A DNA stretch of 64,000 bases from Promethearchaeota archaeon (GTDB lineage Archaea; Asgardarchaeota; Lokiarchaeia; Sigyniarchaeales; SOKP01): contig JAHLWS010000082.1 of the NCBI GenBank assembly GCA_019057795.1, positions 32,001-96,000 of the forward strand, written 5' to 3'. Position 1 is the first letter of the stretch, and each line of letters starts with the position of its first letter. Below, piece by piece: positions 7,450-43,386 of the stretch. Below the pieces are notes generated by a model. It ran no database searches, was not told where the DNA came from, and saw nothing but the letters and a program-made list of their open reading frames with translations. Both the position numbers and the translations under genes were made by a program.

Positions 7450-8544
7450 GTGGATGTGATTCAAGAACTGAAAAAAACTCCATTTTATAATATTCACGTG
7501 AATTTAGGAGCAAGGATGGTTGACTTTGCTGGTTTTAGTATGCCAGTGCAGTACGAAAGCATTATAAAAGAACACGAAGCGGTACGCAATAAAGCGGGTG
7601 TGTTTGACGTGTCACATATGGGGGAATTCCTGTTAGAAGGGAAAGATGTAATATCACTTCTTCAATATGTTATGATTAACGATTTAAAGCTACTAGAACC
7701 CACAAAAGGACAATATTCATGTATGTGTTACGAAAATGGGACTGTTGTTGACGATCTTGTTTATTACGAGGAAGAACCTGAGCGATTTAGAATGATCGTT
7801 AACGCTAGCAATATCGAAAAAGATTTTCAATGGTTAAACGAGCATATTGGAAGTAAAGATGTTAAAATTACTAATTTATCCTTAAAGCGATGTCGTTTAG
7901 CGTTTCAAGGTCCAAAATCTGACGAATATCTCCAACCGTTAGTGGATGTTGATTTATCTTCGATAAACAGGTTTTATTTTGCTCACACTACGTTAAACGG
8001 GGCTCCAATATTTATAGCTAGAACTGGGTATACAGGTGAGCGAGGGTTTGAAATTTCATTTGATAATAAATATGCTGAGAAAATATGGAATGATTTAATT
8101 AAAACTGGAGCCTCACCAGCAGGTTTAGGAGCGCGAGATTCGTTGAGATTAGAAGCAACATACTCATTATATGGACACGAAATTAGCGATTCAATTACGC
8201 CTATTGAAGCTGGACTTTTTTGGCTCGTCAAACCTAAAGAGGGTATCGATTATATTGGAAAAGAAATTTTATTAAAACAAAAATCCGAAGGAACAGATCG
8301 AATTATTGTTGGGTTGAATCTGCTGGATAGAGGTATTATTAGAGAGCATTATAAACTTTTTATTAAAGGCGAGGAAATTGGATATGTAACATCAGGTGGA
8401 TATTCACCTACCCTCAAAAAAACAATAGGCTTAGGCCTAATTAAAAATCAATATCGTGAGGAAGGAAATAAGCTTGAAATTGAAATTCGCAATAGACTCT
8501 TAAAAGGAGAAATAGTTTCTACACCGTTTTATCGTAATGTTTGA
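7450..8544 (+). CDS. gcvT: Glycine cleavage system aminomethyltransferase T
   Basis: [41 protein letters not shown]. Confidence 0.96.
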
Positions 8545-8579
8545 GTGAAGTAAATATAATAATTTAAATGTGAAAAATT

Positions 8580-8975
8580 ATGGAATACGAATTTCCAGAT
8601 GATTTAAAATATATGAAGACACATGAATGGGTGCGAATTGAAGGCGATACGGCTACAATAGGTATTACCGATTATGCTCAACATCAATTAGGTGATATAG
8701 TTTATGTTGAATTACCCGAAATAGGAAGAACGCTAGAAAAAAATAGTAGTGCCGGTGAAATTGAATCCGTTAAGGCAGTTGGAGAAATTCTGATGCCATT
8801 ATCCGGAGAAATCGTTGAGATTAACGCTATTATAATAGAAAACCCCGAATCAATTAATTCTTCTCCTTATGGGGATGGTTGGATGATGAAGATAAAGGTT
8901 TCAAATAGTAGCGAAATTAACGAACTTTTATCCGTTGAAGATTATAAAAAAATAGTAGAAGAAGAGAAAAAATAA
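8580..8975 (+). CDS. gcvH: Glycine cleavage system protein H
   Basis: HEWV, GITDYAQ..LGDIVYVELP, lipoyl motif IESVKA. Confidence 0.96.
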   Translation: MEYEFPDDLKYMKTHEWVRIEGDTATIGITDYAQHQLGDIVYVELPEIGRTLEKNSSAGEIESVKAVGEILMPLSGEIVEINAIIIENPESINSSPYGDGWMMKIKVSNSSEINELLSVEDYKKIVEEEKK

Positions 8976-9012
8976 ACTTTTTTTCCAATTTTTAATTTTA
9001 TTTCTTAATTTC

Positions 9013-10377
9013 TTGAAGTATGAGTTGGTTAATTTGGATTTTGTACCTCATGACGATAAAACAATTACTGAAATGCTTAAAGTTATTGGCGTTAATAATT
9101 TAGAAGAATTATTCCAAGATATTCCTAAAGATTTAATTATTAACAGTTTAAATTTACCTTTAGGCTTATCCGAACCAGATGTTCTGAAAAATTTAAAAGA
9201 ACTTTCTCAAAAGAATAAAGTTTATTCTAATTCCTTTTTGGGAGCAGGTTATTATTTCCATTACATTCCTTCTTTAGTTGATTTTGTAATAAGTCGTACA
9301 GAGTTCTATACTTCATACACTCCCTATCAAGCAGAAGCTAGTCAAGGTTATTTACAAGCGATCTATGAATATCAAAGTGTAATTTCTCGACTCACTCAGA
9401 TGGATGTTGCCAATGCTAGTATGTACGATGGCTCCACTGCGCTTGCGGAAGCGGCTATTATGGCAACTATAATAACAAGGAAAAACCGTTTATTATTATT
9501 GGAAGGCATTCATCCCGAATATTCTGAAGTTGTCAAAACTTATTGTTGGGGACAAGGAATCAATCTTAGAATTATCGCTGAAAATGAATTAATAGACGAA
9601 TTAAACCAAGATATTGCAGCTGTTTTATTTCAGAGTCCAAATTTCTTTGGAGATATTGAAGATGTATCGTCGTTAGCAAAAAAAGTGAAAGAAAAAGCTC
9701 CTAATTGCTTATTGATACAATGTATGACCGATCCCACCTGTTTAGGTGTTCTGAAACCACCAGGAGAAACAGATGTAGATATTTTTGTAGCAGAAGGACA
9801 GTCTTTCGGAATTAGTCCCTCATTTGGTGGACCGGGATTAGGGATTTTTACAGCAAAGCAAAAATATTTGAGGAAAATGCCAGGTAGATTGGTTGGCAAA
9901 ACAAAAGAAATTAACGGCGAACGCGAGGGATTTTTATTAACGTTACAAGCCCGTGAGCAACATATACGAAGAGAAAAAGCGAGTTCAAATATATGCACAA
10001 ACCAAGCATTATGTTCATTATCTGCCTTAATTTATATTATATCTTTAGGAAAAACAGGATTGCGCGAAATCGCAAGCCAAAACTTTCAAAAAGCTAATTA
10101 TGTTAAAAACAAACTAAATGAAATTCCTGGTTATGAAATTTTAAACAAAAAACCAACTTATAACGAATTTATTGTAAAATGTCCAGATGTTGATGCTCTT
10201 ACTCATGAATGCAAGCAATTAAACTTGCTTCCTCCCCTCCGTCTCTCAAAGTATTTTCCAAATTTGAAGAACACAGTTTTAGTGTGTGTAACAGAAATTA
10301 ATTCTCGGGAATCAATTGAAAAGTTTATCAATGCTGCTAAAAACGCTCTATATAACAAAAAGGAGGGAAAAAAATAA
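9013..10377 (+). CDS. gcvPA: Glycine dehydrogenase subunit 1 (start may be TTG at 9034)
   Basis: YTPYQAEASQG, NASMYDG, FGGP, REQHIRREKASSNICTNQAL. Confidence 0.95.
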   Translation: MKYELVNLDFVPHDDKTITEMLKVIGVNNLEELFQDIPKDLIINSLNLPLGLSEPDVLKNLKELSQKNKVYSNSFLGAGYYFHYIPSLVDFVISRTEFYTSYTPYQAEASQGYLQAIYEYQSVISRLTQMDVANASMYDGSTALAEAAIMATIITRKNRLLLLEGIHPEYSEVVKTYCWGQGINLRIIAENELIDELNQDIAAVLFQSPNFFGDIEDVSSLAKKVKEKAPNCLLIQCMTDPTCLGVLKPPGETDVDIFVAEGQSFGISPSFGGPGLGIFTAKQKYLRKMPGRLVGKTKEINGEREGFLLTLQAREQHIRREKASSNICTNQALCSLSALIYIISLGKTGLREIASQNFQKANYVKNKLNEIPGYEILNKKPTYNEFIVKCPDVDALTHECKQLNLLPPLRLSKYFPNLKNTVLVCVTEINSRESIEKFINAAKNALYNKKEGKK

Positions 10378-33269: not shown

Positions 33270-35249
33270 GTGGACAAAATAAATTACCTCGATTTCTTTC
33301 CTTATGAGCAATTTAGACGCGACCAAGAAGATATCACGAAAAAAATTGAGAAAGCTTCAATTGAAAAAAAAAATACTTTACTCGCAGCTCCAAATGGTAC
33401 AGGTAAGACAATAATTGCTTTAAGTGCCTTATTGCCTTTATCAATAAGAAATAATTTAAAAATCATCTATATGTGCCGTACTCACTCTCAGAATACAAGG
33501 ATTATTAAAGAACTAACGAAAATTTCAAATTTTCTAAAAAAGAAAACCCCCCAAATCCAAATAAACGGGCTTTCCATTAGGGGAAGGAACGAAATGTGCC
33601 TTAACGAAACATTATTATCGTTAAAACTTAGACCAAAAGAATCGATGTCCGTGTGTGGAGATTTAAGAAAAAATAAAAATTGTAGATATTTTCTAAATTT
33701 AATCAAAAAAAGAAGTGAATACGATAACCCTATCGATATTGCTCCCGATTTATTAAGTGAACCGGTTGATGCCGAAGAATTAATTAACTTTTGTAAGGAT
33801 AAAAAATTATGTCCTTATTTTTTGAGCAAATTTCTTCTAAAAGAAATGAGAATAATTGCATGCAATTACCAGTGGATTTTCAATCCTTTTATACGCGAAA
33901 ATTTTTTACAATTTATAGATGAAGAGCTTAATAATTGCATTTTAGTGCTTGATGAATGCCATAATGTAATTGATATGGCAACAGAAATTAATTCCGATAG
34001 AATAACGCCGTACTCACTTAGAATATGTCTAAAGGATTTAGAAATTTTCCGGTCACCAAGTATTATGCAGAGGTTTGTAAAAGTTTTATTAAGCCATTTA
34101 GAAAAGAAGAAAAAGAGTTCAAGTGTAGCAGAAATAGAAATTAAAGCAGAAAATTTCTTGCTTCAAATTTATTCAAAGTTAGGGTTTTCGAACTTAAACG
34201 ATTTTAAGAATCTTCTTAGGGATTTACACACTTTCAGTGTTTCAATTCACAACGAAAAGGTAGCTAACGGTGATATTTCAAGAGATTTCATAGGGGCCTT
34301 AGCAGAGTTCTGGCTAAAATGGATAAGATGCTATTTATTGGATAATTACTTCTTTTGTTATAATCTAAAAAGGGTAAAAGGGAAACCGATAATTTCAATA
34401 GAAATTGTTGCGTTAGACCCACGAGATATTGTTATTCCCATTTTAAAAGAATGTTATACTAGTGTGCATCTTTCTGGAACCGTAAATCCTTATGTTTATA
34501 ACAATTTAATGGGTTTAAGAGAAAGTGGAAAAAGCTATAAAGGAATCGTTGCGAGTTCACCATTTAAAAAGGAAAACATTAAAGCATTAATTACAGAAGG
34601 AGTAGACACGCGTAGAGGGAGTCGAACAGGTCCAATGTTTAAAAAAATGCTCTCTAAAATTGACGAAGTAATTTATAGCACTCCTGCTAACATAGGTATT
34701 TTTTGTGCTTCATATAAAGTTCTAAACGCATTAGTTACGAATGGTATTGAATCAATAGCTAATAAGAATAAAAAACAATTATTTATCGAGGAACCAGGAC
34801 TTTCTGCTTCAGAAAATGCCTACTTGGTAAACGATTTTAAATCAATGGCATCACCTTCTCGTAATGGAGCTGTTTTATTGGGCGTGTGTGGAGGGCGAAA
34901 TTCAGAAGGAGAAGATTATCCGGGAGATCATATGAATTCAGTAATTATCGCTGGATTTCCGTATCATTTACCCTCCCCCCGAGTTAATGCAAAAATAGCA
35001 TATTACGATAATGTTTTTGATAAGCAAGGATGGAATTTCGCGTACCTATATCCTGCCGTTCAAAGGGCAAACCAAGCTTCTGGGCGCCCTATACGAAAAT
35101 TAAAAGATAAAGGCGCAATAATATTTATGGATTTCCGTTTTAAACAAAAGTACAAATGGATTTCTGAATGGATAAGAAAAGAACTTGAAGTTGTGCCAGA
35201 TAAGGAAGGTGTTTTAACGAAAAATTTATATCCCTTTTGGCACAGTTAA
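33270..35249 (+). CDS. xpd: XPD/Rad3-family Fe-S DNA helicase
   Basis: FPY..R..Q, APNGTGKT, Fe-S cysteines (MCL, VC, NC, LCPY), DECHN, SGT, SEG.D, QASGRPIR. Confidence 0.92.
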   Translation: MDKINYLDFFPYEQFRRDQEDITKKIEKASIEKKNTLLAAPNGTGKTIIALSALLPLSIRNNLKIIYMCRTHSQNTRIIKELTKISNFLKKKTPQIQINGLSIRGRNEMCLNETLLSLKLRPKESMSVCGDLRKNKNCRYFLNLIKKRSEYDNPIDIAPDLLSEPVDAEELINFCKDKKLCPYFLSKFLLKEMRIIACNYQWIFNPFIRENFLQFIDEELNNCILVLDECHNVIDMATEINSDRITPYSLRICLKDLEIFRSPSIMQRFVKVLLSHLEKKKKSSSVAEIEIKAENFLLQIYSKLGFSNLNDFKNLLRDLHTFSVSIHNEKVANGDISRDFIGALAEFWLKWIRCYLLDNYFFCYNLKRVKGKPIISIEIVALDPRDIVIPILKECYTSVHLSGTVNPYVYNNLMGLRESGKSYKGIVASSPFKKENIKALITEGVDTRRGSRTGPMFKKMLSKIDEVIYSTPANIGIFCASYKVLNALVTNGIESIANKNKKQLFIEEPGLSASENAYLVNDFKSMASPSRNGAVLLGVCGGRNSEGEDYPGDHMNSVIIAGFPYHLPSPRVNAKIAYYDNVFDKQGWNFAYLYPAVQRANQASGRPIRKLKDKGAIIFMDFRFKQKYKWISEWIRKELEVVPDKEGVLTKNLYPFWHS

Positions 35250-35303
35250 AATATTAGAGAGAATCAATTATTTTACATTAATTCAAGAAGTTTACCGCAT
35301 TTA

Positions 35304-37088
35304 TTATAAATTAAGATATAGATTAGCTAATTTTTTAGAAACAATGCTCCATGTAAAATTGGTCTTAACTCTTTTGTAGCAATTTTCTTTAATCTTTTTG
35401 TAGAAGTGTGGATCTAAAAGAACTAAAGACTTGATTATTTCGTCTGGAATCTGATTTACCAATTGAAGGATTTCTGTTTCATATATATTTTCTTTGCTTT
35501 TCGCTCTCTTAGAGATTTCTGCTAAAACTAAAAGAGAGATTGAAGCTTCAGCAAATTGAGAGGGATTATCTCTTTCAACTAAAACCCCAGTTCCTATTTC
35601 TGGGAAGTTTCTTAGATCAATGATGGATTCTTTTAAGCCTCCAACCTTACTTGCAATGATGGGCATTTTAGATGCCATAGCTTCTAATGCCATAATACCA
35701 AATGGTTCCCATCGGGAAAGAGATACAAAAACATCGGCAGATATATGTGCCAGATAAAAAATATCGGAAGCTACTCCGAAAATAATCCTAACATTTTCAG
35801 GATACTTTTTAACATATGTGGAATATATTTTAATTTCATCAAGGCTATAGTCCGTTGGTAAAATAAGGAAAAGAAATCGTGCATCATGAACTACCTTTAA
35901 GACCTCTGGAATTGCTTCAAAAATGATTTCAAAACCTTTTTGAGGCGATATACGACCAGTAGTTAATAATAATGGGCCACTTTCGGAAAAAGCTTTAATA
36001 TTACCGTTTTTAATAAAGGGATTTCCGTTTGATATTTCGTTTATTGTGTCAAGAACTTTTTGTGAATTAATTAAAGGACTCCGACTTAATTTTCCAATTT
36101 TGTATTCTAATAAATACTCTTTTAAATCTTTTCTTTCTATTTTTGATAATTCATTTAAATTGAGATATTCTCTTAAATCGTGGCCGTGAATTTTCAAAAC
36201 TTTTTCATATATCTCGTAATAATCCCAATCAGTTCCATCATATACAAAATCAGCCTTGAACGCTATTAATTTTTTGCCACAGTTTGGAATAATGTCTGAT
36301 ATTAAATATGATTGGCTTACTGTAGTAACAACATCTGATATAATAGCTCCAATCTTTTCAACTGTGGGTACTGTAGATTCAATACCCAATTCGTTAAATT
36401 CTTTAGATAGTTTAAATATTTCGTTCAAATTTAGTAATTTAAACCCTTCATTTAATAAGACTCTAATTGGCGTTTCGTCTATTCCACTTGCTCTATAAAA
36501 GTCGTATTCGAACCTCGGCCAAGTTAATAAGTGTATCGTTAATATTGAAGCAACATTTAAACTATTTTTTGCTAAGATCTGTTTCATTCCTATAAAGGCC
36601 AAAACAACGTGGTAATCGTGCAAATGAACAACTTCAGGCAAATAGTTCCTGTTATTTTCTATAAAGAATTCTACTAAACATTGAATCCCAATGCTAAAAA
36701 GAGATATTTTACCTTTTATTGTTTCTGGCTTATAAACCGTCTTATCATCCAAATACTTTGATGTGAAAGAATTCTCTCCAGAAACTAAAACGATGTTCAC
36801 ATTTTCCATTTTAAATTTATAAAATGAAATATAATAGCTCGCTTCCTGCTCATTTATTCCGATAAAAGAAGGATTAATTTGACCGATACAAGTGAATGGT
36901 AATTTTTCCAATTTAAATTTGTTTTTTAGATTTTCAATTTGCCCATGGGACGGCATAAATACGGTTATATCGAACTGTTCAACTAAATGTTTTGCCTGAT
37001 TTGCAGGGACCTCCCCAAGCCCTCCTACTTTAGCTACACCAGCGTACTCAAATGAAAAAATCCATACTTTTTTCTTTTTTTCTGTCAA
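35304..37088 (-). CDS. glgA: Glycogen synthase (GT5)
   Basis: KVGGLG, HLHDYH, TTVS..Y, GRI..QKG, SRWEPFGIMALEAM. Confidence 0.88.
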   Translation of the reverse strand: MTEKKKKVWIFSFEYAGVAKVGGLGEVPANQAKHLVEQFDITVFMPSHGQIENLKNKFKLEKLPFTCIGQINPSFIGINEQEASYYISFYKFKMENVNIVLVSGENSFTSKYLDDKTVYKPETIKGKISLFSIGIQCLVEFFIENNRNYLPEVVHLHDYHVVLAFIGMKQILAKNSLNVASILTIHLLTWPRFEYDFYRASGIDETPIRVLLNEGFKLLNLNEIFKLSKEFNELGIESTVPTVEKIGAIISDVVTTVSQSYLISDIIPNCGKKLIAFKADFVYDGTDWDYYEIYEKVLKIHGHDLREYLNLNELSKIERKDLKEYLLEYKIGKLSRSPLINSQKVLDTINEISNGNPFIKNGNIKAFSESGPLLLTTGRISPQKGFEIIFEAIPEVLKVVHDARFLFLILPTDYSLDEIKIYSTYVKKYPENVRIIFGVASDIFYLAHISADVFVSLSRWEPFGIMALEAMASKMPIIASKVGGLKESIIDLRNFPEIGTGVLVERDNPSQFAEASISLLVLAEISKRAKSKENIYETEILQLVNQIPDEIIKSLVLLDPHFYKKIKENCYKRVKTNFTWSIVSKKLANLYLNL

Positions 37089-38565: not shown

Positions 38566-39975
38566 TTATTTAATTTCATTACTAATTTTTGTTAAAAGTC
38601 TAAGCATTTCATTTTTTACAAAGTAACCACAGAGAGGGCTAAAACTTGGCACGGGTTCATAACCCCCTTCTTCAACATATTCGTGTATAGGAAATAGGTA
38701 TCCTATCCAATCTTGAGCATTTTGAAAAATAAAAATGTTATCTTTTCCAATTAAAGACGCTTTAAGAAAGCTTTCTCCTATTTCTTCAAACAATTCTCCT
38801 GGAATTGTCATTAAACTAAATTCTTTTTCCTTAGATTTTGATTTTGCCTTAACCTTGATATATTGAATAACAGTGTTGCATCTGAATTTACCTTTATTTT
38901 TATCAATGATAAAAATTGGAAAATTAGAATTTAACATTGTATATCGAGCAATGTTTAACAAGAATAATTTCTTAATTGCGTAAATCAATTTGTTTGTAAA
39001 CCATTGTTTAGAAAAATATTTGTGATCTTTCATTGGAATCCAAAACTCGTGTGCATATATTTGGAATTCTATGGTGCTAAAATAATCATTATCAGAAATA
39101 GAATTCGCTAATTTCAACGCTTCTTCAGCAATAGTATATCCAATTCTTTCTGTATGATGATAAGTACCTAGCTGATCGTATATTGGCGTTTTATCCAATT
39201 CAAATTGTTCGTACTCAGTCCCACATGTTGTTATAGGGTTTAAATCACCTGAAGCGCCATTGAAGTATATTGCTTTTACTTTATTATTTGTTAATTCGCT
39301 AATTTTCTGAATTATACGACCCGGATAATCGGCAGATAATTTATTATTTTTGTATGATAATGTAGTAGGATGGCACGCATAGTTAATAATAAAACCTAAC
39401 AATTCATTTTCTTCTAAACTTTTAAAAGTAATTACTCCTAAATGAGGAAGAGTCTTCCTAGAGGGGTGTCTTCTGTTGATTACGAGGTCTGGATTAAAGG
39501 GTTCCTTTTTCCACGCAATTTTGCAAGACTTTAAATTACTAAATAATCCTTCGACCATTTTCAGTATTTTATTAGTGAACCATACGATGTATTTATCATT
39601 CTTATTCGCACCAAACATAATACCTCTCATTACATTTAGAGCACCTCCAGGCCAATAAAACTCGCCCGTTAAATCAAAAGCAGCGTGAGTATGAGTGGCA
39701 TGCACTAAAATTTGTTCAAATTTTAATGAAGGATATTTCTTAATTATTTTATTTCTAATGTATTTTGTTATAGATAAAGGAACTTTTAACAAATCTAAAG
39801 ATATTAGAAGCAAAAAATCTTTAGTAGAAGCTACTGAATTGCTTTCAATTAAAACGCTATGAACATAAATGTCATCTAACTTCCCTAAACAGGGGTCTTT
39901 ACGAGTATATCCTGCCAAAGGTTTACTAACATATTCTTTGGGAGTAATATTTAACTTACTAAAAGCAACTTTCAT
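38566..39975 (-). CDS. Neutral/alkaline ceramidase-like hydrolase
   Basis: ITP...LAGY, HATHTH, NRR, NYACHPT, SADYPG, GASGD, PGE, GY.P......GGYE. Confidence 0.82.
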   Translation of the reverse strand: MKVAFSKLNITPKEYVSKPLAGYTRKDPCLGKLDDIYVHSVLIESNSVASTKDFLLLISLDLLKVPLSITKYIRNKIIKKYPSLKFEQILVHATHTHAAFDLTGEFYWPGGALNVMRGIMFGANKNDKYIVWFTNKILKMVEGLFSNLKSCKIAWKKEPFNPDLVINRRHPSRKTLPHLGVITFKSLEENELLGFIINYACHPTTLSYKNNKLSADYPGRIIQKISELTNNKVKAIYFNGASGDLNPITTCGTEYEQFELDKTPIYDQLGTYHHTERIGYTIAEEALKLANSISDNDYFSTIEFQIYAHEFWIPMKDHKYFSKQWFTNKLIYAIKKLFLLNIARYTMLNSNFPIFIIDKNKGKFRCNTVIQYIKVKAKSKSKEKEFSLMTIPGELFEEIGESFLKASLIGKDNIFIFQNAQDWIGYLFPIHEYVEEGGYEPVPSFSPLCGYFVKNEMLRLLTKISNEIK

Positions 39976-40571: not shown

Positions 40572-42677
40572 ATGTCGGAGCAACACTTCCAAATATGTCA
40601 TTTTTGCCAGCGAAATGTAAAGATAGCGTATTATTGTGAAAAATGTGGCGTTAGTTGTTGTTCTGATTGCCTTCACGAAGAAAAAGTCGATTCTTATGTT
40701 TGTCAAGATTGCAATTCAAAAAATATTGCTCTCTCAGGATCAAGTAAGCAAAAGATTTGTAACGATTGTGGAAAAGAGAATATAATCAAAACGAACCAAC
40801 TTTTAAAATCTTGTCCCAAGTGTCATTCTCATCAAATTATTAATATCTACGAAAAGAAGGAAGATTTAGAAAAACAATTTTTAGAATTAATTAAAAACGC
40901 ACGCTCCTTTATTGATCCATTTAGGGATATAGTAAATTCCCTTTATATGATAAGACAGAGAGTATTTGATGCAAGAGCGCCTCCTATAAGGTGTTTTCAT
41001 TATCCTAAAATGGAATCCGACCTCTTAGCGCTCTTTAAATTATTTATATATGCAAAAGAAAATCTTCTTGAAAAGATACACAATCTAATCCAACATTTAT
41101 CTATAAATAGAGAATATTTTTTTAATATTTACACTCAACAGAATTCTAATATAAGAATTATAGAAGACATTTTAGAAAATTTAAATAGAAGCTATAATTC
41201 TATAACTGATTTTATTCAAAGTAATGTAAAAACAATAAATACTAGCATAGATAACCTATTAAAAAATCTTATTTTCATAGACAAGATCGCATTTTACTTC
41301 AAAAACTATATTAAATTTCTCAATTTAGCAGAAGATGAAAAACCCGTTTATGCGATATATGCAAAATTAGCGAATGGTCTTAACACAGAAGATAAATACA
41401 AAAAAGATAAAGGTATTCTGTTCATTACTAATTTTGACTTATCATTTGTTCATGAATATGGAAGATTAAAGAGAAAGAAAAAAGGTATTTTTAAAGCGCC
41501 AGTTAAAGATTTAACTAGCGTTAAAATAAAAGGTAAGCTGTTTAAAAAACTTTATATCGAATTTCCTTATGGTAGATATGAATTCACACTTCCTACAAAT
41601 TCAATTTCGCGAGTATTAGATTATATTCTACTAGCCAGAAGTTTTGATGAAACTATTGTGTATGATAAAGTGGCAGCGAAAAAACTTTACGATATTGATG
41701 TCGATTTGAGCGATTTAACCAATTATATTGAGGAGACGATAAATTCTTTCTTTAGTATAAAATGCCAATATAATAATGTTAATTCAAATAATGTATTCGT
41801 TAATCTTCACAATGCTAACCCATTATTTAATCAAAATCTAAGGAATGTACCTAATCAAATTTCACTTCAAGCCCCATATAATCAAAATCAGCCTACTTAC
41901 CAAAATAATTTTATTTATCCATTTAATAATTATCAAAATATGCCAAGAAATCCATTGCTTTATCAAAAAAATAAAGGATTTTCTAATCAAGGATTCGGCC
42001 AAATTCAAACTCCTGAAGAATTAAACCATTACAACAACACAGTAAGGCACTACCTACCGCCAAATTACAATCAAAATGAATTCTTCTTGCAAAATCTAAC
42101 TGAGACCGGTAGGATACAGAATTACGATCCTATAAGGTCTAACAGCGGATTTAAAAACAATTTTTCTAATGCTGAAGAGAAAAACTTTTTAATGAGAAAA
42201 TTAGAACAATTGCAAAGATACGGCGCCCCTTCTTCTAATCCATTGTATAGAAATAATTTTGACGAACGATCGTACGAACCTGCCTATTATCGATTGAATG
42301 AAAAAGTTAGACAAATGCCACAATATAACGAATACTCGAGGAATCATCTTTCAGAATTGTTTAATAATGACCATATGTCAAATCAACCGAATGATCTCCT
42401 AAGACCTAATTCAAAGAAAATGAATAAAACGAGACGTAAAAAAATGTTTGAATTGAAAAAAGAAAAATATAGTCTCGTAGAAACGTTAAAAACATTAGAA
42501 TCAAAATTTGAATCTGGAAATATTTCTGAAATTGATTTCTTTAAAAATTTTAAGAAATTACAAAAGGATTTCTATACAATTGATAAAAGCATTGAATCGA
42601 TCGACGAAGAGATGCAAGAAGAAGATTTTTTAAGAAGAAATGCCAAAAAATTCGATAGAAAAAGATATTTTACCTAA
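40572..42677 (+). CDS. Multidomain protein: Zn-fingers, coiled coil, PH/GRAM-like domain, N/Q-rich disordered region, C-terminal steadiness-box-like hairpin
   Basis: Six CxxC-type pairs at the N-terminus; KGILFITNFDLSF...PVKDLTSVKIKG.LFKKLYIEF PH/GRAM pattern; C-terminal ETLKTLESKFESGNISEIDFFKNFKKL. Confidence 0.6.
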   Translation: MSEQHFQICHFCQRNVKIAYYCEKCGVSCCSDCLHEEKVDSYVCQDCNSKNIALSGSSKQKICNDCGKENIIKTNQLLKSCPKCHSHQIINIYEKKEDLEKQFLELIKNARSFIDPFRDIVNSLYMIRQRVFDARAPPIRCFHYPKMESDLLALFKLFIYAKENLLEKIHNLIQHLSINREYFFNIYTQQNSNIRIIEDILENLNRSYNSITDFIQSNVKTINTSIDNLLKNLIFIDKIAFYFKNYIKFLNLAEDEKPVYAIYAKLANGLNTEDKYKKDKGILFITNFDLSFVHEYGRLKRKKKGIFKAPVKDLTSVKIKGKLFKKLYIEFPYGRYEFTLPTNSISRVLDYILLARSFDETIVYDKVAAKKLYDIDVDLSDLTNYIEETINSFFSIKCQYNNVNSNNVFVNLHNANPLFNQNLRNVPNQISLQAPYNQNQPTYQNNFIYPFNNYQNMPRNPLLYQKNKGFSNQGFGQIQTPEELNHYNNTVRHYLPPNYNQNEFFLQNLTETGRIQNYDPIRSNSGFKNNFSNAEEKNFLMRKLEQLQRYGAPSSNPLYRNNFDERSYEPAYYRLNEKVRQMPQYNEYSRNHLSELFNNDHMSNQPNDLLRPNSKKMNKTRRKKMFELKKEKYSLVETLKTLESKFESGNISEIDFFKNFKKLQKDFYTIDKSIESIDEEMQEEDFLRRNAKKFDRKRYFT

Positions 42678-42735
42678 GAATTCCAATACTAATCAAAATT
42701 GATTGAAATTGGTAAAGAGAATAAGTTTAAAAAAA

Positions 42736-43386
42736 TTAACTTTCTAATTCTTTCCTAAGTTTGTTGATTTCGTCTTCTAATTTTGCTTTCGTTTTTATTT
42801 CAGTTTCTTCTTCCATCTCGTCAAACTCGCTCAGATATTGTAAGTCGTCGGCAGGTACTTCTGGCATTTGGCCACCTTGTTCTAAAAGCATTTCGGTTTC
42901 TAGTTGGTTTAACTCATCAGTTACATCGATTGCTAAATCTATTTCGGGATCTCCGGCAAGAATATCGGCAGACTCCTCTATTTCTGCAACATATGCCTCA
43001 GAATCTTCGGCTATCTCTGCAATCTTAACAGGAGATGCCTTCGTTGCAATTACTTTTAATTCGTCCCTAATTCCCCCCATTAAATCGCCCGTCGTTGATA
43101 TCATTTGGCCCTCCAAAATTGCTTCTAGCTGACGTTCTATTCTAGCTCGAATGTTGTTCGCCCGATCTACCTTCATCTGATATTGTTTGTGTTGAATTAA
43201 ATAATTCTTAGCTCTAGTTCTTTCTCCTCTCTTTATTGCAATTTTGGCGTTTTTTCTAGCAATTTCTGCTCTTTTATTGAAAGTTTTATTTGATAACGCT
43301 ATTTTTCTAATGTGTGATTTAGCTTTAATAACTAATTCGTCTTTTTCTTTAGCTTTCCGGGGAAAAAGTTTTTTTTTTAACGCCAT
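42736..43386 (-). CDS. ESCRT-III (Snf7 family) protein
   Basis: Basic N-half and acidic C-half; AK.AIKRGER.RAK.YL...KQYQ; DELNQLE; MPEVP and terminal LEDEINKLR. Confidence 0.88.
   Translation of the reverse strand: MALKKKLFPRKAKEKDELVIKAKSHIRKIALSNKTFNKRAEIARKNAKIAIKRGERTRAKNYLIQHKQYQMKVDRANNIRARIERQLEAILEGQMISTTGDLMGGIRDELKVIATKASPVKIAEIAEDSEAYVAEIEESADILAGDPEIDLAIDVTDELNQLETEMLLEQGGQMPEVPADDLQYLSEFDEMEEETEIKTKAKLEDEINKLRKELES

Follow-up and report, generated by a model that had tools for sequence, protein, structure and literature searches.

This locus raises two questions: how a single Asgard protein comes to join zinc fingers, a PH-fold domain and an ESCRT-I-type end, and why its gene and an ESCRT-III gene sit tail to tail. 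An earlier note on the same DNA read the protein as an undescribed Asgard adaptor that combines cargo/lipid recognition with ESCRT-I-type assembly, possibly serving a second ESCRT-III. The locus lies in a window of 64,000 nucleotides (the whole stretch of DNA that was analysed) from a genome assembled into 87 contigs, and its features, in window coordinates, are as follows.

40572..42677, + strand: ATG-started ORF of 701 aa, assigned to the Znr_CC_PH_SB family (asCOG cog.011556)
40572..40844, + strand: predicted N-terminal zinc module, aa 1-91, with six CxxC pairs (conserved Cys; short strands in AF2)
40845..41336, + strand: predicted helical region, aa 92-255, with four long helices (AF2)
41337..41780, + strand: predicted PH-fold domain and trailing helices, aa 256-403, with lysine-rich loops (domain model, Foldseek, VIA-align)
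41784..42404, + strand: predicted disordered N/Q/P/Y-rich linker, aa 405-611 (pLDDT below 50; no Pfam match)
42405..42665, + strand: predicted C-terminal helical hairpin, aa 612-698, a Vps23-type steadiness box (AF2 and profiles)
42678..42735, no strand: A+T-rich spacer of 58 nt separating the two convergent stop codons
42736..43386, - strand: predicted ESCRT-IIIB gene (Vps20/32/60 class, ortholog of Loki 'CHMP4-7'), 216 aa, matching Pfam Snf7

Both genes of the convergent pair, and the 58 nt between them, were confirmed by the ORF list and Pfam, as the earlier note had described them. The longer ORF is backed by homologs: among the candidates scored, 262 proteins match at E<=1e-3, the best 120 of which are at least 49% identical (range 49-92%) and mostly full-length, and the family profile matches 171 clusters (clustered at 50% identity). 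Judged by these relatives, the ORF is far beyond chance. The terminator scan reported no terminator-like hairpin in the 58-nt gap, and the promoter scan gave 24 promoter-like sites vs 17.9 expected, using a sigma-70 model that is not applicable to archaea; neither scan was informative. RNA-library contigs from three studies carry sequences related to portions of both genes (90-99% similar; DNA carry-over is possible); none of them spans the gap between the genes, and their depth is uninterpretable. Because the genes are convergent, they have no common transcript.

The 701-aa protein is almost certainly a Lokiarchaeial member of Znr_CC_PH_SB, a family described by Makarova et al. 2024 (mBio 15:e00335-24; PMC10936438, section 6 and Table S2), where the running text spells the name Znr_PH_CC_SB. 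Every family feature that was tested for is present, i.e., zinc ribbons, helical region, PH domain, steadiness box and orthology. Three relatives that are 94% (L011; As_045 34562..36676), 68% (L018; As_015 8055..10151) and 50% (L077; As_046 7518..9500) identical to it coincide in position with entries of cog.011556 in Table S2, and the Lokiarchaeum GC14_75 locus in that table has its gene order in common with the window: GlgA, C69 peptidase, L35Ae, Znr_CC_PH_SB, ESCRT-III cog.001938, DHQS, GH57 and CAAX protease. With the family as described, the protein shares three zinc ribbons, a helical/coiled-coil region, a PH domain, a C-terminal steadiness box and an Asgard-only distribution. There is no difference of substance: the window's copy is Loki-type, with an N/Q-rich linker of about 200 aa, while Thor-type members are roughly 520 aa and lack the long N/Q-rich linker. 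The family was thus already in print with the same functional proposal, an ESCRT-I-like, membrane-associated component (PMC10936438), so 'undescribed' has to be withdrawn.

Two further publications may touch on the family. A 2018 review table gives Lokiarch_16740 as the Vps23/TSG101 homolog (PMC5840170), and by locus-tag spacing we take this to be the Lokiarchaeum ortholog of the 701-aa protein. Hatano et al. 2022 reported that, in yeast two-hybrid assays, a steadiness-box protein from Lokiarchaeia, which the main text leaves unnamed, contacts Vps28 and Vps22. The literature searched yielded no bench study on any Znr_CC_PH_SB member, and Table S3 of PMC10936438 yielded no evidence row for it.

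The N-terminal cysteine clusters, previously called B-box/Zn-ribbon, are real: they form six conserved CxxC pairs (C9/12, C22/25, C30/33, C44/47, C63/66 and C81/84), enough for three predicted Zn sites. In 30 distant relatives, eight of these cysteines never vary, and conservation of the remaining four is 90% or higher. The AF2 model gives the module short strands (pLDDT about 80), and its Pfam matches are all below cut-off (DZR 3.7e-4, A2L_zn_ribbon 1.4e-3, zf-B_box 0.068). A full-length profile searched against PDB sequences returned zinc-ribbon noise alone (E>1). The stretch that follows (the earlier note lists a coiled coil after the cysteine clusters) is helical in AF2, with helices at aa 92-113, 115-134, 145-188 and 194-255 (pLDDT mostly 75-90). 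As a whole, the full-length AF2 model is poor (pLDDT 59); its best Foldseek matches, to DH-PH and BAR-PH structures, have weak E and TM of 0.1-0.2 and give no grounds for assigning a DH or BAR domain.

The PH domain was modelled separately. An AF2 model of aa 247-406 has a pLDDT of 92.3 and consists of seven strands plus a capping helix. Foldseek finds 100 matches to it at E<=0.001, and all of those listed (ranks 1-49) are PH-superfold domains or contain one, including the PH-like domain of Lam6 (2.2e-5) and, at rank 2, the PH domain of Vps36 (2cay; 4.4e-5). With VIA-align, the MTMR2 PH-GRAM domain scores Z 13.4 (rmsd 2.7 over 107 residues), Lam6 scores Z 13.0 and the EAP45 GLUE domain (2dx5) scores Z 10.8. 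These results bear out the PH/GRAM-like block that had been placed at about 41335-41640. Pfam PH_SLA1 matches the domain under cut-off (E 0.0058), and Pfam and NCBIfam scans of the whole protein gave nothing beyond a weak match to that model. K278, K302 and K325 of the domain are invariant in alignment A1 (30 Loki-type sequences). A PH fold does not by itself settle lipid binding: PH/PTB/FERM-type modules in protein-binding contexts account for many of the structural neighbours listed.

A PH-fold domain joined with zinc fingers recalls yeast Vps36/mammalian EAP45 (the fingers being found in yeast Vps36). In contrast to Vps36, the 701-aa protein has no winged-helix (EAP30) domains (it has no EAP30 match, and the genome's EAP30 is on contig C38), and its zinc module is N-terminal rather than inserted in the PH domain. 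GLUE and PH domains have the fold in common, yet PH-GRAM and other PH domains score equal or higher against our model; since MTMR2 and Lam6 are among these, the model does not show specific GLUE kinship.

The N/Q/P/Y-rich region of roughly 200 aa noticed earlier is predicted to be a disordered linker, with pLDDT below 50 and no Pfam domain matched within aa 405-611. It contains conserved islands (FFLQN..RIQNY at about aa 503-518, a helix at about 531-549 and NHLSELF at about 591-597) that are kept in 30 Loki-type sequences and missing from the short Thor-type forms; in distant relatives of roughly 500 aa, the linker itself is short or missing. The helix at aa 531-549 is amphipathic (L-x-x-K-L-x-x-[LMF]), and the linker also carries PPNY and NHLSDLF. 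Judged by eye, the helix resembles the MIM1 consensus and PPNY the PPxY consensus.

The hairpin at the C-terminus is what would tie the protein to ESCRT-I. AF2 builds it from helices at aa 612-647 and 653-698 (pLDDT about 85). The single sequence reaches 13.4 bits against Pfam Vps23_core, for which the cut-off is 26.8, so the steadiness-box call rests on profiles. Hairpin profile A3 matches the yeast Vps23 core (2F66_A at E 2.1e-6, 2P22_A at 2.3e-6, 2CAZ_A at 4.9e-6), with the match to the solved Vps23 steadiness box covering 57 residues, and it matches TSG101 (6VME_B) at E 0.029. It also finds the N-terminal hairpin of the genome's own Vps28 (E 0.0065). Searched against 1.8 billion sequences, the family profile retrieves P0262 and P0265, both UEV-Vps23 proteins (about 2e-6). 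Vps23_core is seen at E<=0.1 in 13 of the 18 C-terminal-only relatives and exceeds the Pfam cut-off in three. These profile comparisons make the C-terminal hairpin a homologue of the steadiness box in Vps23; the C-terminal peptide that had been likened to that of Vps23/TSG101 is present and sits within a confidently modelled hairpin.

This homologous hairpin (E 2.1e-6 to 2F66_A) is what the protein has in common with yeast Vps23/human TSG101. It lacks a UEV (neither UEV nor UQ_con matches the whole protein at E<=0.1), having the zinc module, helical region and PH domain in its place. The disordered linker leads into the hairpin, a position taken by a coiled-coil stalk in Vps23, and the protein's long helices stand N-terminal to the PH domain. 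Lacking a UEV, and with no long stalk modelled immediately ahead of the hairpin, it does not qualify as a strict Vps23 ortholog.

The neighbouring gene can be placed more precisely than as Snf7. Pfam Snf7 recognises its 216-aa product above cut-off (39.6 bits against 27.3; E 5.5e-10), and the product matches, over its full length, chain U of PDB 9FN1 ('Vps20/32/60-like'; E 2.9e-91), an entry tied to Loki GC14_75 CHMP4-7, KKK44605.1 (PMC11791191). On these matches, it is ESCRT-IIIB, the predicted ortholog of the filament-forming Loki CHMP4-7. The genome's other ESCRT-III paralog, on contig C38, has CHMP2A and CHMP1B as its best matches. The 216-aa gene is the sole Vps20/32/60-class (B-type) copy found in the genome, so it is not the 'orphan' or 'second' ESCRT-III of the earlier note. 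The remaining partners lie elsewhere: Vps28 is on contig C73, and Vps22/EAP30, Vps25, Vps4 and ESCRT-IIIA are on C38. The window is on C82, which agrees with the remark that no vps4 or ESCRT-II gene is nearby. A Vps23 with both UEV and steadiness box was not found in this 87-contig assembly (best UEV E 0.13); when P0265 was used in that search, its best match was the hairpin of the 701-aa protein itself.

Linkage of the two genes is conserved. Of 80 related loci, 71 have ESCRT-IIIB downstream of the adaptor gene and on the other strand; in eight of the remaining nine, no more than 596 nt of downstream sequence is available. The adaptor and ESCRT-IIIB genes are about 180 kb apart in one complete genome. 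The 80 loci are not independent evidence, because the whole neighbourhood is conserved, unrelated housekeeping genes included. Table S2 extends the comparison to other classes: Znr_CC_PH_SB is tail to tail with ESCRT-IIIA (cog.001760) in all 10 Thor genomes seen, where cog.001938 is on other contigs, and in one Hermod genome it is tail to tail with IIIB, which is followed by IIIA. The flanks of the two loci read (Thor AB25 and Hermod) are unlike Loki's. The family's genes are thus paired tail to tail with ESCRT-III genes in Loki, Hermod and Thor relatives alike, so the preferred reading of the Loki locus is that it is a detached end of the ancestral ESCRT cluster (adaptor, IIIB, IIIA, Vps4, Vps25 and Vps22).

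Part of the earlier interpretation stands, namely the domains and the conserved ESCRT-III link, while 'undescribed' and 'orphan/second' ESCRT-III do not. It also came through the checks on which it could have failed: the C-terminus is not SHOCT alone, the PH fold is present and linkage to snf7 is kept.

As for mechanism, the best explanation combines Znr_CC_PH_SB membership with an ESCRT-I-like mode of action, and we hold this combination to be somewhat likelier than its negation. The mechanism by itself, as proposed in print, we consider evenly balanced. It would work as follows. The lysine-rich PH domain, perhaps together with the helical region, would hold the protein on the membrane, and the zinc module would bind cargo (possibly ubiquitin) or another protein. 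The disordered linker would allow the C-terminal hairpin to reach Vps28 and/or Vps22 and pack with their steadiness-box hairpins. The resulting ESCRT-I-like headpiece would signal via ESCRT-II (Vps22/Vps25) to ESCRT-IIIB polymerisation and Vps4.

A different route would bypass ESCRT-II: with its PH domain on the membrane, the protein would recruit ESCRT-III directly, nucleating or positioning IIIB (or IIIA), and the hairpin or a linker motif would be the docking site (compare CdvA for CdvB, and Bro1/ALIX for Snf7). CdvA of Thermoproteota (TACK), which has a PRC-barrel and, at its C-terminus, a peptide binding the winged helix of CdvB, is likewise a membrane-recruiting adaptor encoded beside an ESCRT-III gene, but neither the PRC-barrel nor the CdvB-binding peptide is seen in the 701-aa protein. 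An HHpred likeness of the steadiness box and the CdvA hairpin has been reported (Makarova et al. 2024, PMC10936438), and Pfam CdvA matches weakly in two of the 18 C-terminal relatives. Wherever the gene is paired tail to tail, its partner is an ESCRT-III gene, which favours direct contact, but the class of that partner varies by lineage (IIIB in Loki/Hermod, IIIA in Thor), which fits cluster ancestry better. The conserved islands of the Loki-type linker, with their amphipathic helix, could serve as docking motifs, but short Thor-type forms do without them, and no ESCRT-III-binding element was found in sequence or structure. We therefore regard direct recruitment as unlikely.

The protein might instead act upstream of ESCRT-I as a cargo/ubiquitin receptor, i.e., an ESCRT-0 analogue whose zinc module reads ubiquitin or ubiquitin-like modifiers, whose PH domain reads the membrane and whose hairpin only tethers it to ESCRT-I/II. 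Across the family, conservation is highest in the zinc module and the PH domain, and in yeast Vps36 it is the zinc fingers to which ubiquitin and Vps28 bind (cited in PMC10936438). However, the module matches only generic zinc-ribbon/B-box models, sub-threshold, and no ubiquitin-binding motif was identified in it. The genome's apparent lack of a UEV-plus-steadiness-box Vps23 suggests that another ubiquitin reader may be needed, but with 87 contigs, that absence is not proven. This role, too, seems improbable to us. It is rather a long shot that, in Lokiarchaeia with no UEV-Vps23 found, Znr_CC_PH_SB is the sole Vps23-type subunit, a merged ESCRT-0/I that would read membrane and cargo and whose linker islands would dock Vps4 or ESCRT-IIIB directly.

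Weakest, and already disfavoured, is a reading, raised as a caveat in the earlier note, in which the C-terminus is a generic SHOCT-like/coiled-coil oligomerisation element and the protein is unrelated to ESCRT. Its G-x-I-S-x-x-D-F turn resembles the SHOCT consensus, SHOCT appears sub-threshold in three of the 18 C-terminal relatives (E 0.006-0.07, about 18 residues, at most 16.7 bits for a cut-off of 27) and a DUF4062-TIR protein carries a similar hairpin; against this, SHOCT (PF09851, a model of roughly 28 residues) has no match to aa 621-701 at the listing limit of E 10, the hairpin profile matches Vps23 and TSG101, UEV-Vps23 proteins are retrieved, and the gene adjoins ESCRT-III genes in three Asgard classes, making this reading highly improbable.

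The ESCRT-I-like reading thus keeps its place as our preferred one. The idea of these modules united in one chain is already published, and the window holds one more Loki-type copy rather than a new protein. What is added here is an explicit statistical test of the steadiness-box assignment, the tail-to-tail ESCRT-III pairing across Loki, Hermod and Thor relatives, and a list of conserved linker islands as candidate motifs. Asgard ESCRT proteins bear on the origin of eukaryotic membrane trafficking, and Znr_CC_PH_SB unites in one chain modules that eukaryotes split between Vps23 (steadiness box) and Vps36 (PH domain and zinc fingers).

The earlier note placed a 701-aa ORF facing a Snf7 gene, and this arrangement is confirmed: the two ORFs converge, 58 nt separate their stop codons, and the 216-aa product matches Pfam Snf7 above the cut-off (E 5.5e-10). 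The features of the window discussed here are as follows.

40572..42677, + strand: adaptor ORF, ATG start, 701 aa
41784-42404 (aa 405-611), + strand: conserved islands of the Loki-type linker, from an alignment of close relatives (A1)
42736..43386, - strand: Snf7-family ORF, 216 aa, converging on the 701-aa ORF
38566-39975, - strand: ceramidase-like gene, 469 aa; weak, sub-threshold match to the neutral/alkaline ceramidase N-terminus (E 1.2e-5)

Among the candidates scored in a word-indexed search, 262 proteins matched the 701-aa protein at E<=1e-3; the top 120 are at least 49% identical and mostly full-length. A family profile search of 1.84 billion representatives gave 171 clusters at the same threshold. 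On this homology, we therefore regard the ORF as a real, widely conserved gene. The named sources among the listed matches are all Asgard: Promethearchaeota/Lokiarchaeota, plus some labelled Thor, Hod, Heimdall or Hermod. Several listed matches carry the name 'B-box zinc finger protein'.

Makarova et al. (PMC10936438) described this family as Znr_CC_PH_SB (cog.011556), 'a likely ESCRT-I component' with a PH domain 'expected to be membrane associated', absent from eukaryotes and likely ancestral in Asgard archaea. The family occurs 50 times in their Table S2, whose gene order for Lokiarchaeum GC14_75 is GlgA, RidA, ArgE, C69 dipeptidase, L35Ae, Znr_CC_PH_SB, MetE, ESCRT-III cog.001938 (opposite strand), 3-dehydroquinate synthase, GH57 and CAAX protease. 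The window has the same order, but without RidA, ArgE and MetE and with the extra ceramidase-like gene, which sits between the C69 peptidase and L35Ae; many related loci have this gene too, but the table rows for GC14_75 do not list it. Three related loci, retrieved independently, coincide exactly with Table S2 entries: L011 (94% identity) with Loki_b31, 34562..36676; L018 (68% identity) with DZG bin1.240, 8055..10151; and L077 (50% identity) with Loki_b32, 7518..9500. No evidence row for Znr_CC_PH_SB was found in Table S3 of the same paper. In the table of a 2018 review (PMC5840170), Lokiarch_16740 appears as the Asgard homolog of Vps23/TSG101, and Lokiarch_16760 as the ESCRT-III of the Vps20/32/60 class; from locus-tag spacing, we infer that these are the Znr_CC_PH_SB and ESCRT-III genes of the GC14_75 locus. 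The protein, which had been called undescribed, therefore belongs to a known family, and the functional proposal of the earlier note was already in print.

Together, A1 (30 close relatives) and A2 (30 distant relatives, 17-49% identity) show five protein parts. The zinc module has six CxxC pairs within aa 9-84, enough for three zinc sites; in A2 eight of its cysteines are invariant and the other four reach 90% conservation or more, and its Pfam matches (zinc ribbon and B-box) are all sub-threshold. The helical region (aa 92-255) is modelled by AlphaFold2 as four long helices, for the most part at pLDDT 75-90.

The third part, aa 247-406, was modelled alone from a 50-sequence alignment, giving seven strands and a capping helix at pLDDT 92.3. 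Of the 100 PDB matches that Foldseek gave at E<=0.001, all those listed are PH-superfold domains or proteins with one; the Lam6 PH-like domain ranks first (2.2e-5), followed by the N-terminal PH domain of Vps36 (4.4e-5). VIA-align against 48,161 representative chains gave 210 at Z>=8, among them MTMR2 PH-GRAM (Z 13.4, rmsd 2.7 over 107 residues), Lam6 (Z 13.0) and EAP45 GLUE (Z 10.8). The modelled fold is therefore certainly PH, and the matches do not single out a subtype, which could be GLUE, GRAM or other. Its loops are lysine-rich, with K278, K302 and K325 invariant in A1, a composition compatible with an acidic-lipid surface but short of proof.

The linker (aa 405-611) is N/Q/P/Y-rich and disordered (AlphaFold2 pLDDT below 50), and it is short or missing in the ~500-aa relatives in A2. 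Loki-type sequences in A1 keep the islands PPNY, FFLQN..RIQNY, NHLSDLF/NHLSELF and an amphipathic helix, EEKNFLMRKLEQLQ, near aa 531-549. Judged by eye, this helix resembles a MIM1 motif (L-x-x-K-L-x-x-L) and PPNY a PPxY motif. The extreme C-terminal tail, FDxKRY[FY][TS], is conserved in A1 too.

The C-terminal hairpin (H612-647/H653-698) has a pLDDT of about 85 (AlphaFold2). Alone, the last 81 residues score 13.4 bits against Pfam Vps23_core (E 0.08; cut-off 26.8). A profile built from 16 C-terminal sequences (A3) matches three chains of the solved yeast Vps23 (Stp22) ESCRT-I core over 57 residues (E 2.1e-6, 2.3e-6 and 4.9e-6), human TSG101 (E 0.029) and, in the window's own genome, the Vps28 N-terminal hairpin (E 0.0065). 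The aligned yeast segment has a G-T-I turn at the position of G-x-I-S-x-x-[DE]-F. The whole-family profile reaches two UEV-Vps23 proteins via the hairpin region (about 2e-6), one of which, P0265, clears the Pfam Vps23_core cut-off. By these profile matches, the hairpin is a steadiness-box homolog with the turn as part of its signature, and the E of 2.1e-6 to the yeast core bears out the steadiness-box-like end claimed earlier.

Among 18 proteins matching the family profile in the C-terminal region only, Pfam finds Vps23_core at E<=0.1 in 13 (above cut-off in 3), CdvA in 2, and SHOCT in 3, below cut-off and spanning about 18 residues. The 701-aa protein could alternatively be a CdvA- or Bro1-like direct recruiter of ESCRT-III, or an ESCRT-0-like receptor. 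A SHOCT-like C-terminus, the earlier caveat, is disfavoured, since Pfam finds no SHOCT match in the last 81 residues and the Vps23 core is matched.

Steadiness-box-like tails also occur elsewhere. P0268, a 395-aa TIR protein of the defence type that also has a DUF4062 domain, has an ESCRT-I-like tail: its terminal hairpin matches the family's steadiness-box region at E 2.4e-6. P0271 (G000:C4:809-2233, - strand, locus L092), 474 aa, K/P/E-rich and without a Pfam domain, has a C-terminal hairpin matching the steadiness-box profile at E 2e-9, making it a second such protein in the window's genome.

Over its full length, the window's Snf7 product aligns with chain U of PDB 9FN1 ('Vps20/32/60-like protein') at E 2.9e-91. 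PMC11791191 ties 9FN1 to Loki GC14_75 CHMP4-7 (KKK44605.1); this protein forms helical tubes by self-assembly, and CHMP1-3 remodels them. The genome has two Snf7-family genes; the other, on contig C38, best matches CHMP2A and CHMP1B and adjoins Vps4, Vps25 and an EAP30/Vps22-like gene, and Vps28 is on contig C73. Homology therefore identifies the window's Snf7 as the only ESCRT-IIIB gene found in its genome, not part of a second system. The interpretation in the earlier note thus keeps its domains and, as a hypothesis, ESCRT-I-type assembly, but loses both 'undescribed' and 'second ESCRT-III'.

The ESCRT-IIIB protein (42736-43386, - strand) has weak phmmer matches to trypanosomatid ribosomal protein eL31 (E 0.002-0.3), probably compositional, from its basic N-terminal helices. 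Immediately upstream of Vps28 and in the same direction, a gene on G000:C73 (locus L010:5675-6574, + strand) encodes a 300-aa protein that has a zinc ribbon at its N-terminus and may be another ESCRT-I-linked protein. A 591-aa protein (G000:C30, locus L102:1279-3054, - strand) has a weak UQ_con match, repeated E2/UEV/RWD-like segments (judged by eye) and a Cys-rich RING-like tail, without a steadiness box.

Across 80 related loci (48-94% identity), all taken from genomes that represent species, ESCRT-IIIB lies downstream on the opposite strand in 71, with tblastn gaps of <400 nt in 35, 0.7-1.2 kb in 32 and 1.6-1.7 kb in 4. Eight of the remaining nine have at most 596 nt of downstream DNA left; in the ninth, a complete chromosome, ESCRT-IIIB is about 180 kb away. 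The entire neighbourhood is common to these loci, which therefore do not count as independent cases. Table S2 does supply independent evidence: in 10/10 Thorarchaeota genomes among the rows listed, cog.011556 and ESCRT-IIIA (cog.001760) are immediate tail-to-tail neighbours (in Thor AB25 with Vps4, Vps25 and Vps22 next, between ArgS/TldDE and AsnS), and in one Hermodarchaeota genome cog.011556 is tail to tail with IIIB, then IIIA, with unrelated flanks. Lokiarchaeota CR_4 has cog.011556 and ESCRT-III genes on separate contigs. The simplest reading is an ancestral cluster, broken in Lokiarchaeia between IIIB and IIIA.

One inserted gene of ~1.1 kb, annotated MetE in GC14_75, separates adaptor and ESCRT-IIIB in 32 of the 71 loci (L040-L090); the window is the compact form, with no gene between them. 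Most of the Asgard block (GlgA, ceramidase-like, L35Ae, Znr_CC_PH_SB, ESCRT-IIIB, DHQS, GH57, CAAX) is present at 66% identity in L023 (DATKTW010000152.1), a contig recorded as 'Candidatus Nanopelagicaceae bacterium' and probably mis-binned.

The main text of Hatano et al. (2022) reports two-hybrid contacts of a Lokiarchaeial steadiness-box protein, left unnamed there, with Vps28 and Vps22. In the proposed mechanism, the lysine-rich PH domain would anchor the protein to membrane and the zinc module would bind a partner or cargo. Given the reach of the flexible linker, the steadiness-box hairpin would pack against those of Vps28 and/or Vps22, leading to handover to ESCRT-II, ESCRT-IIIB and Vps4. 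Since the window's own genome (87-contig assembly) yielded no Vps23 with both a UEV domain and a steadiness box, the 701-aa protein may be the main Vps23-type subunit of that genome.
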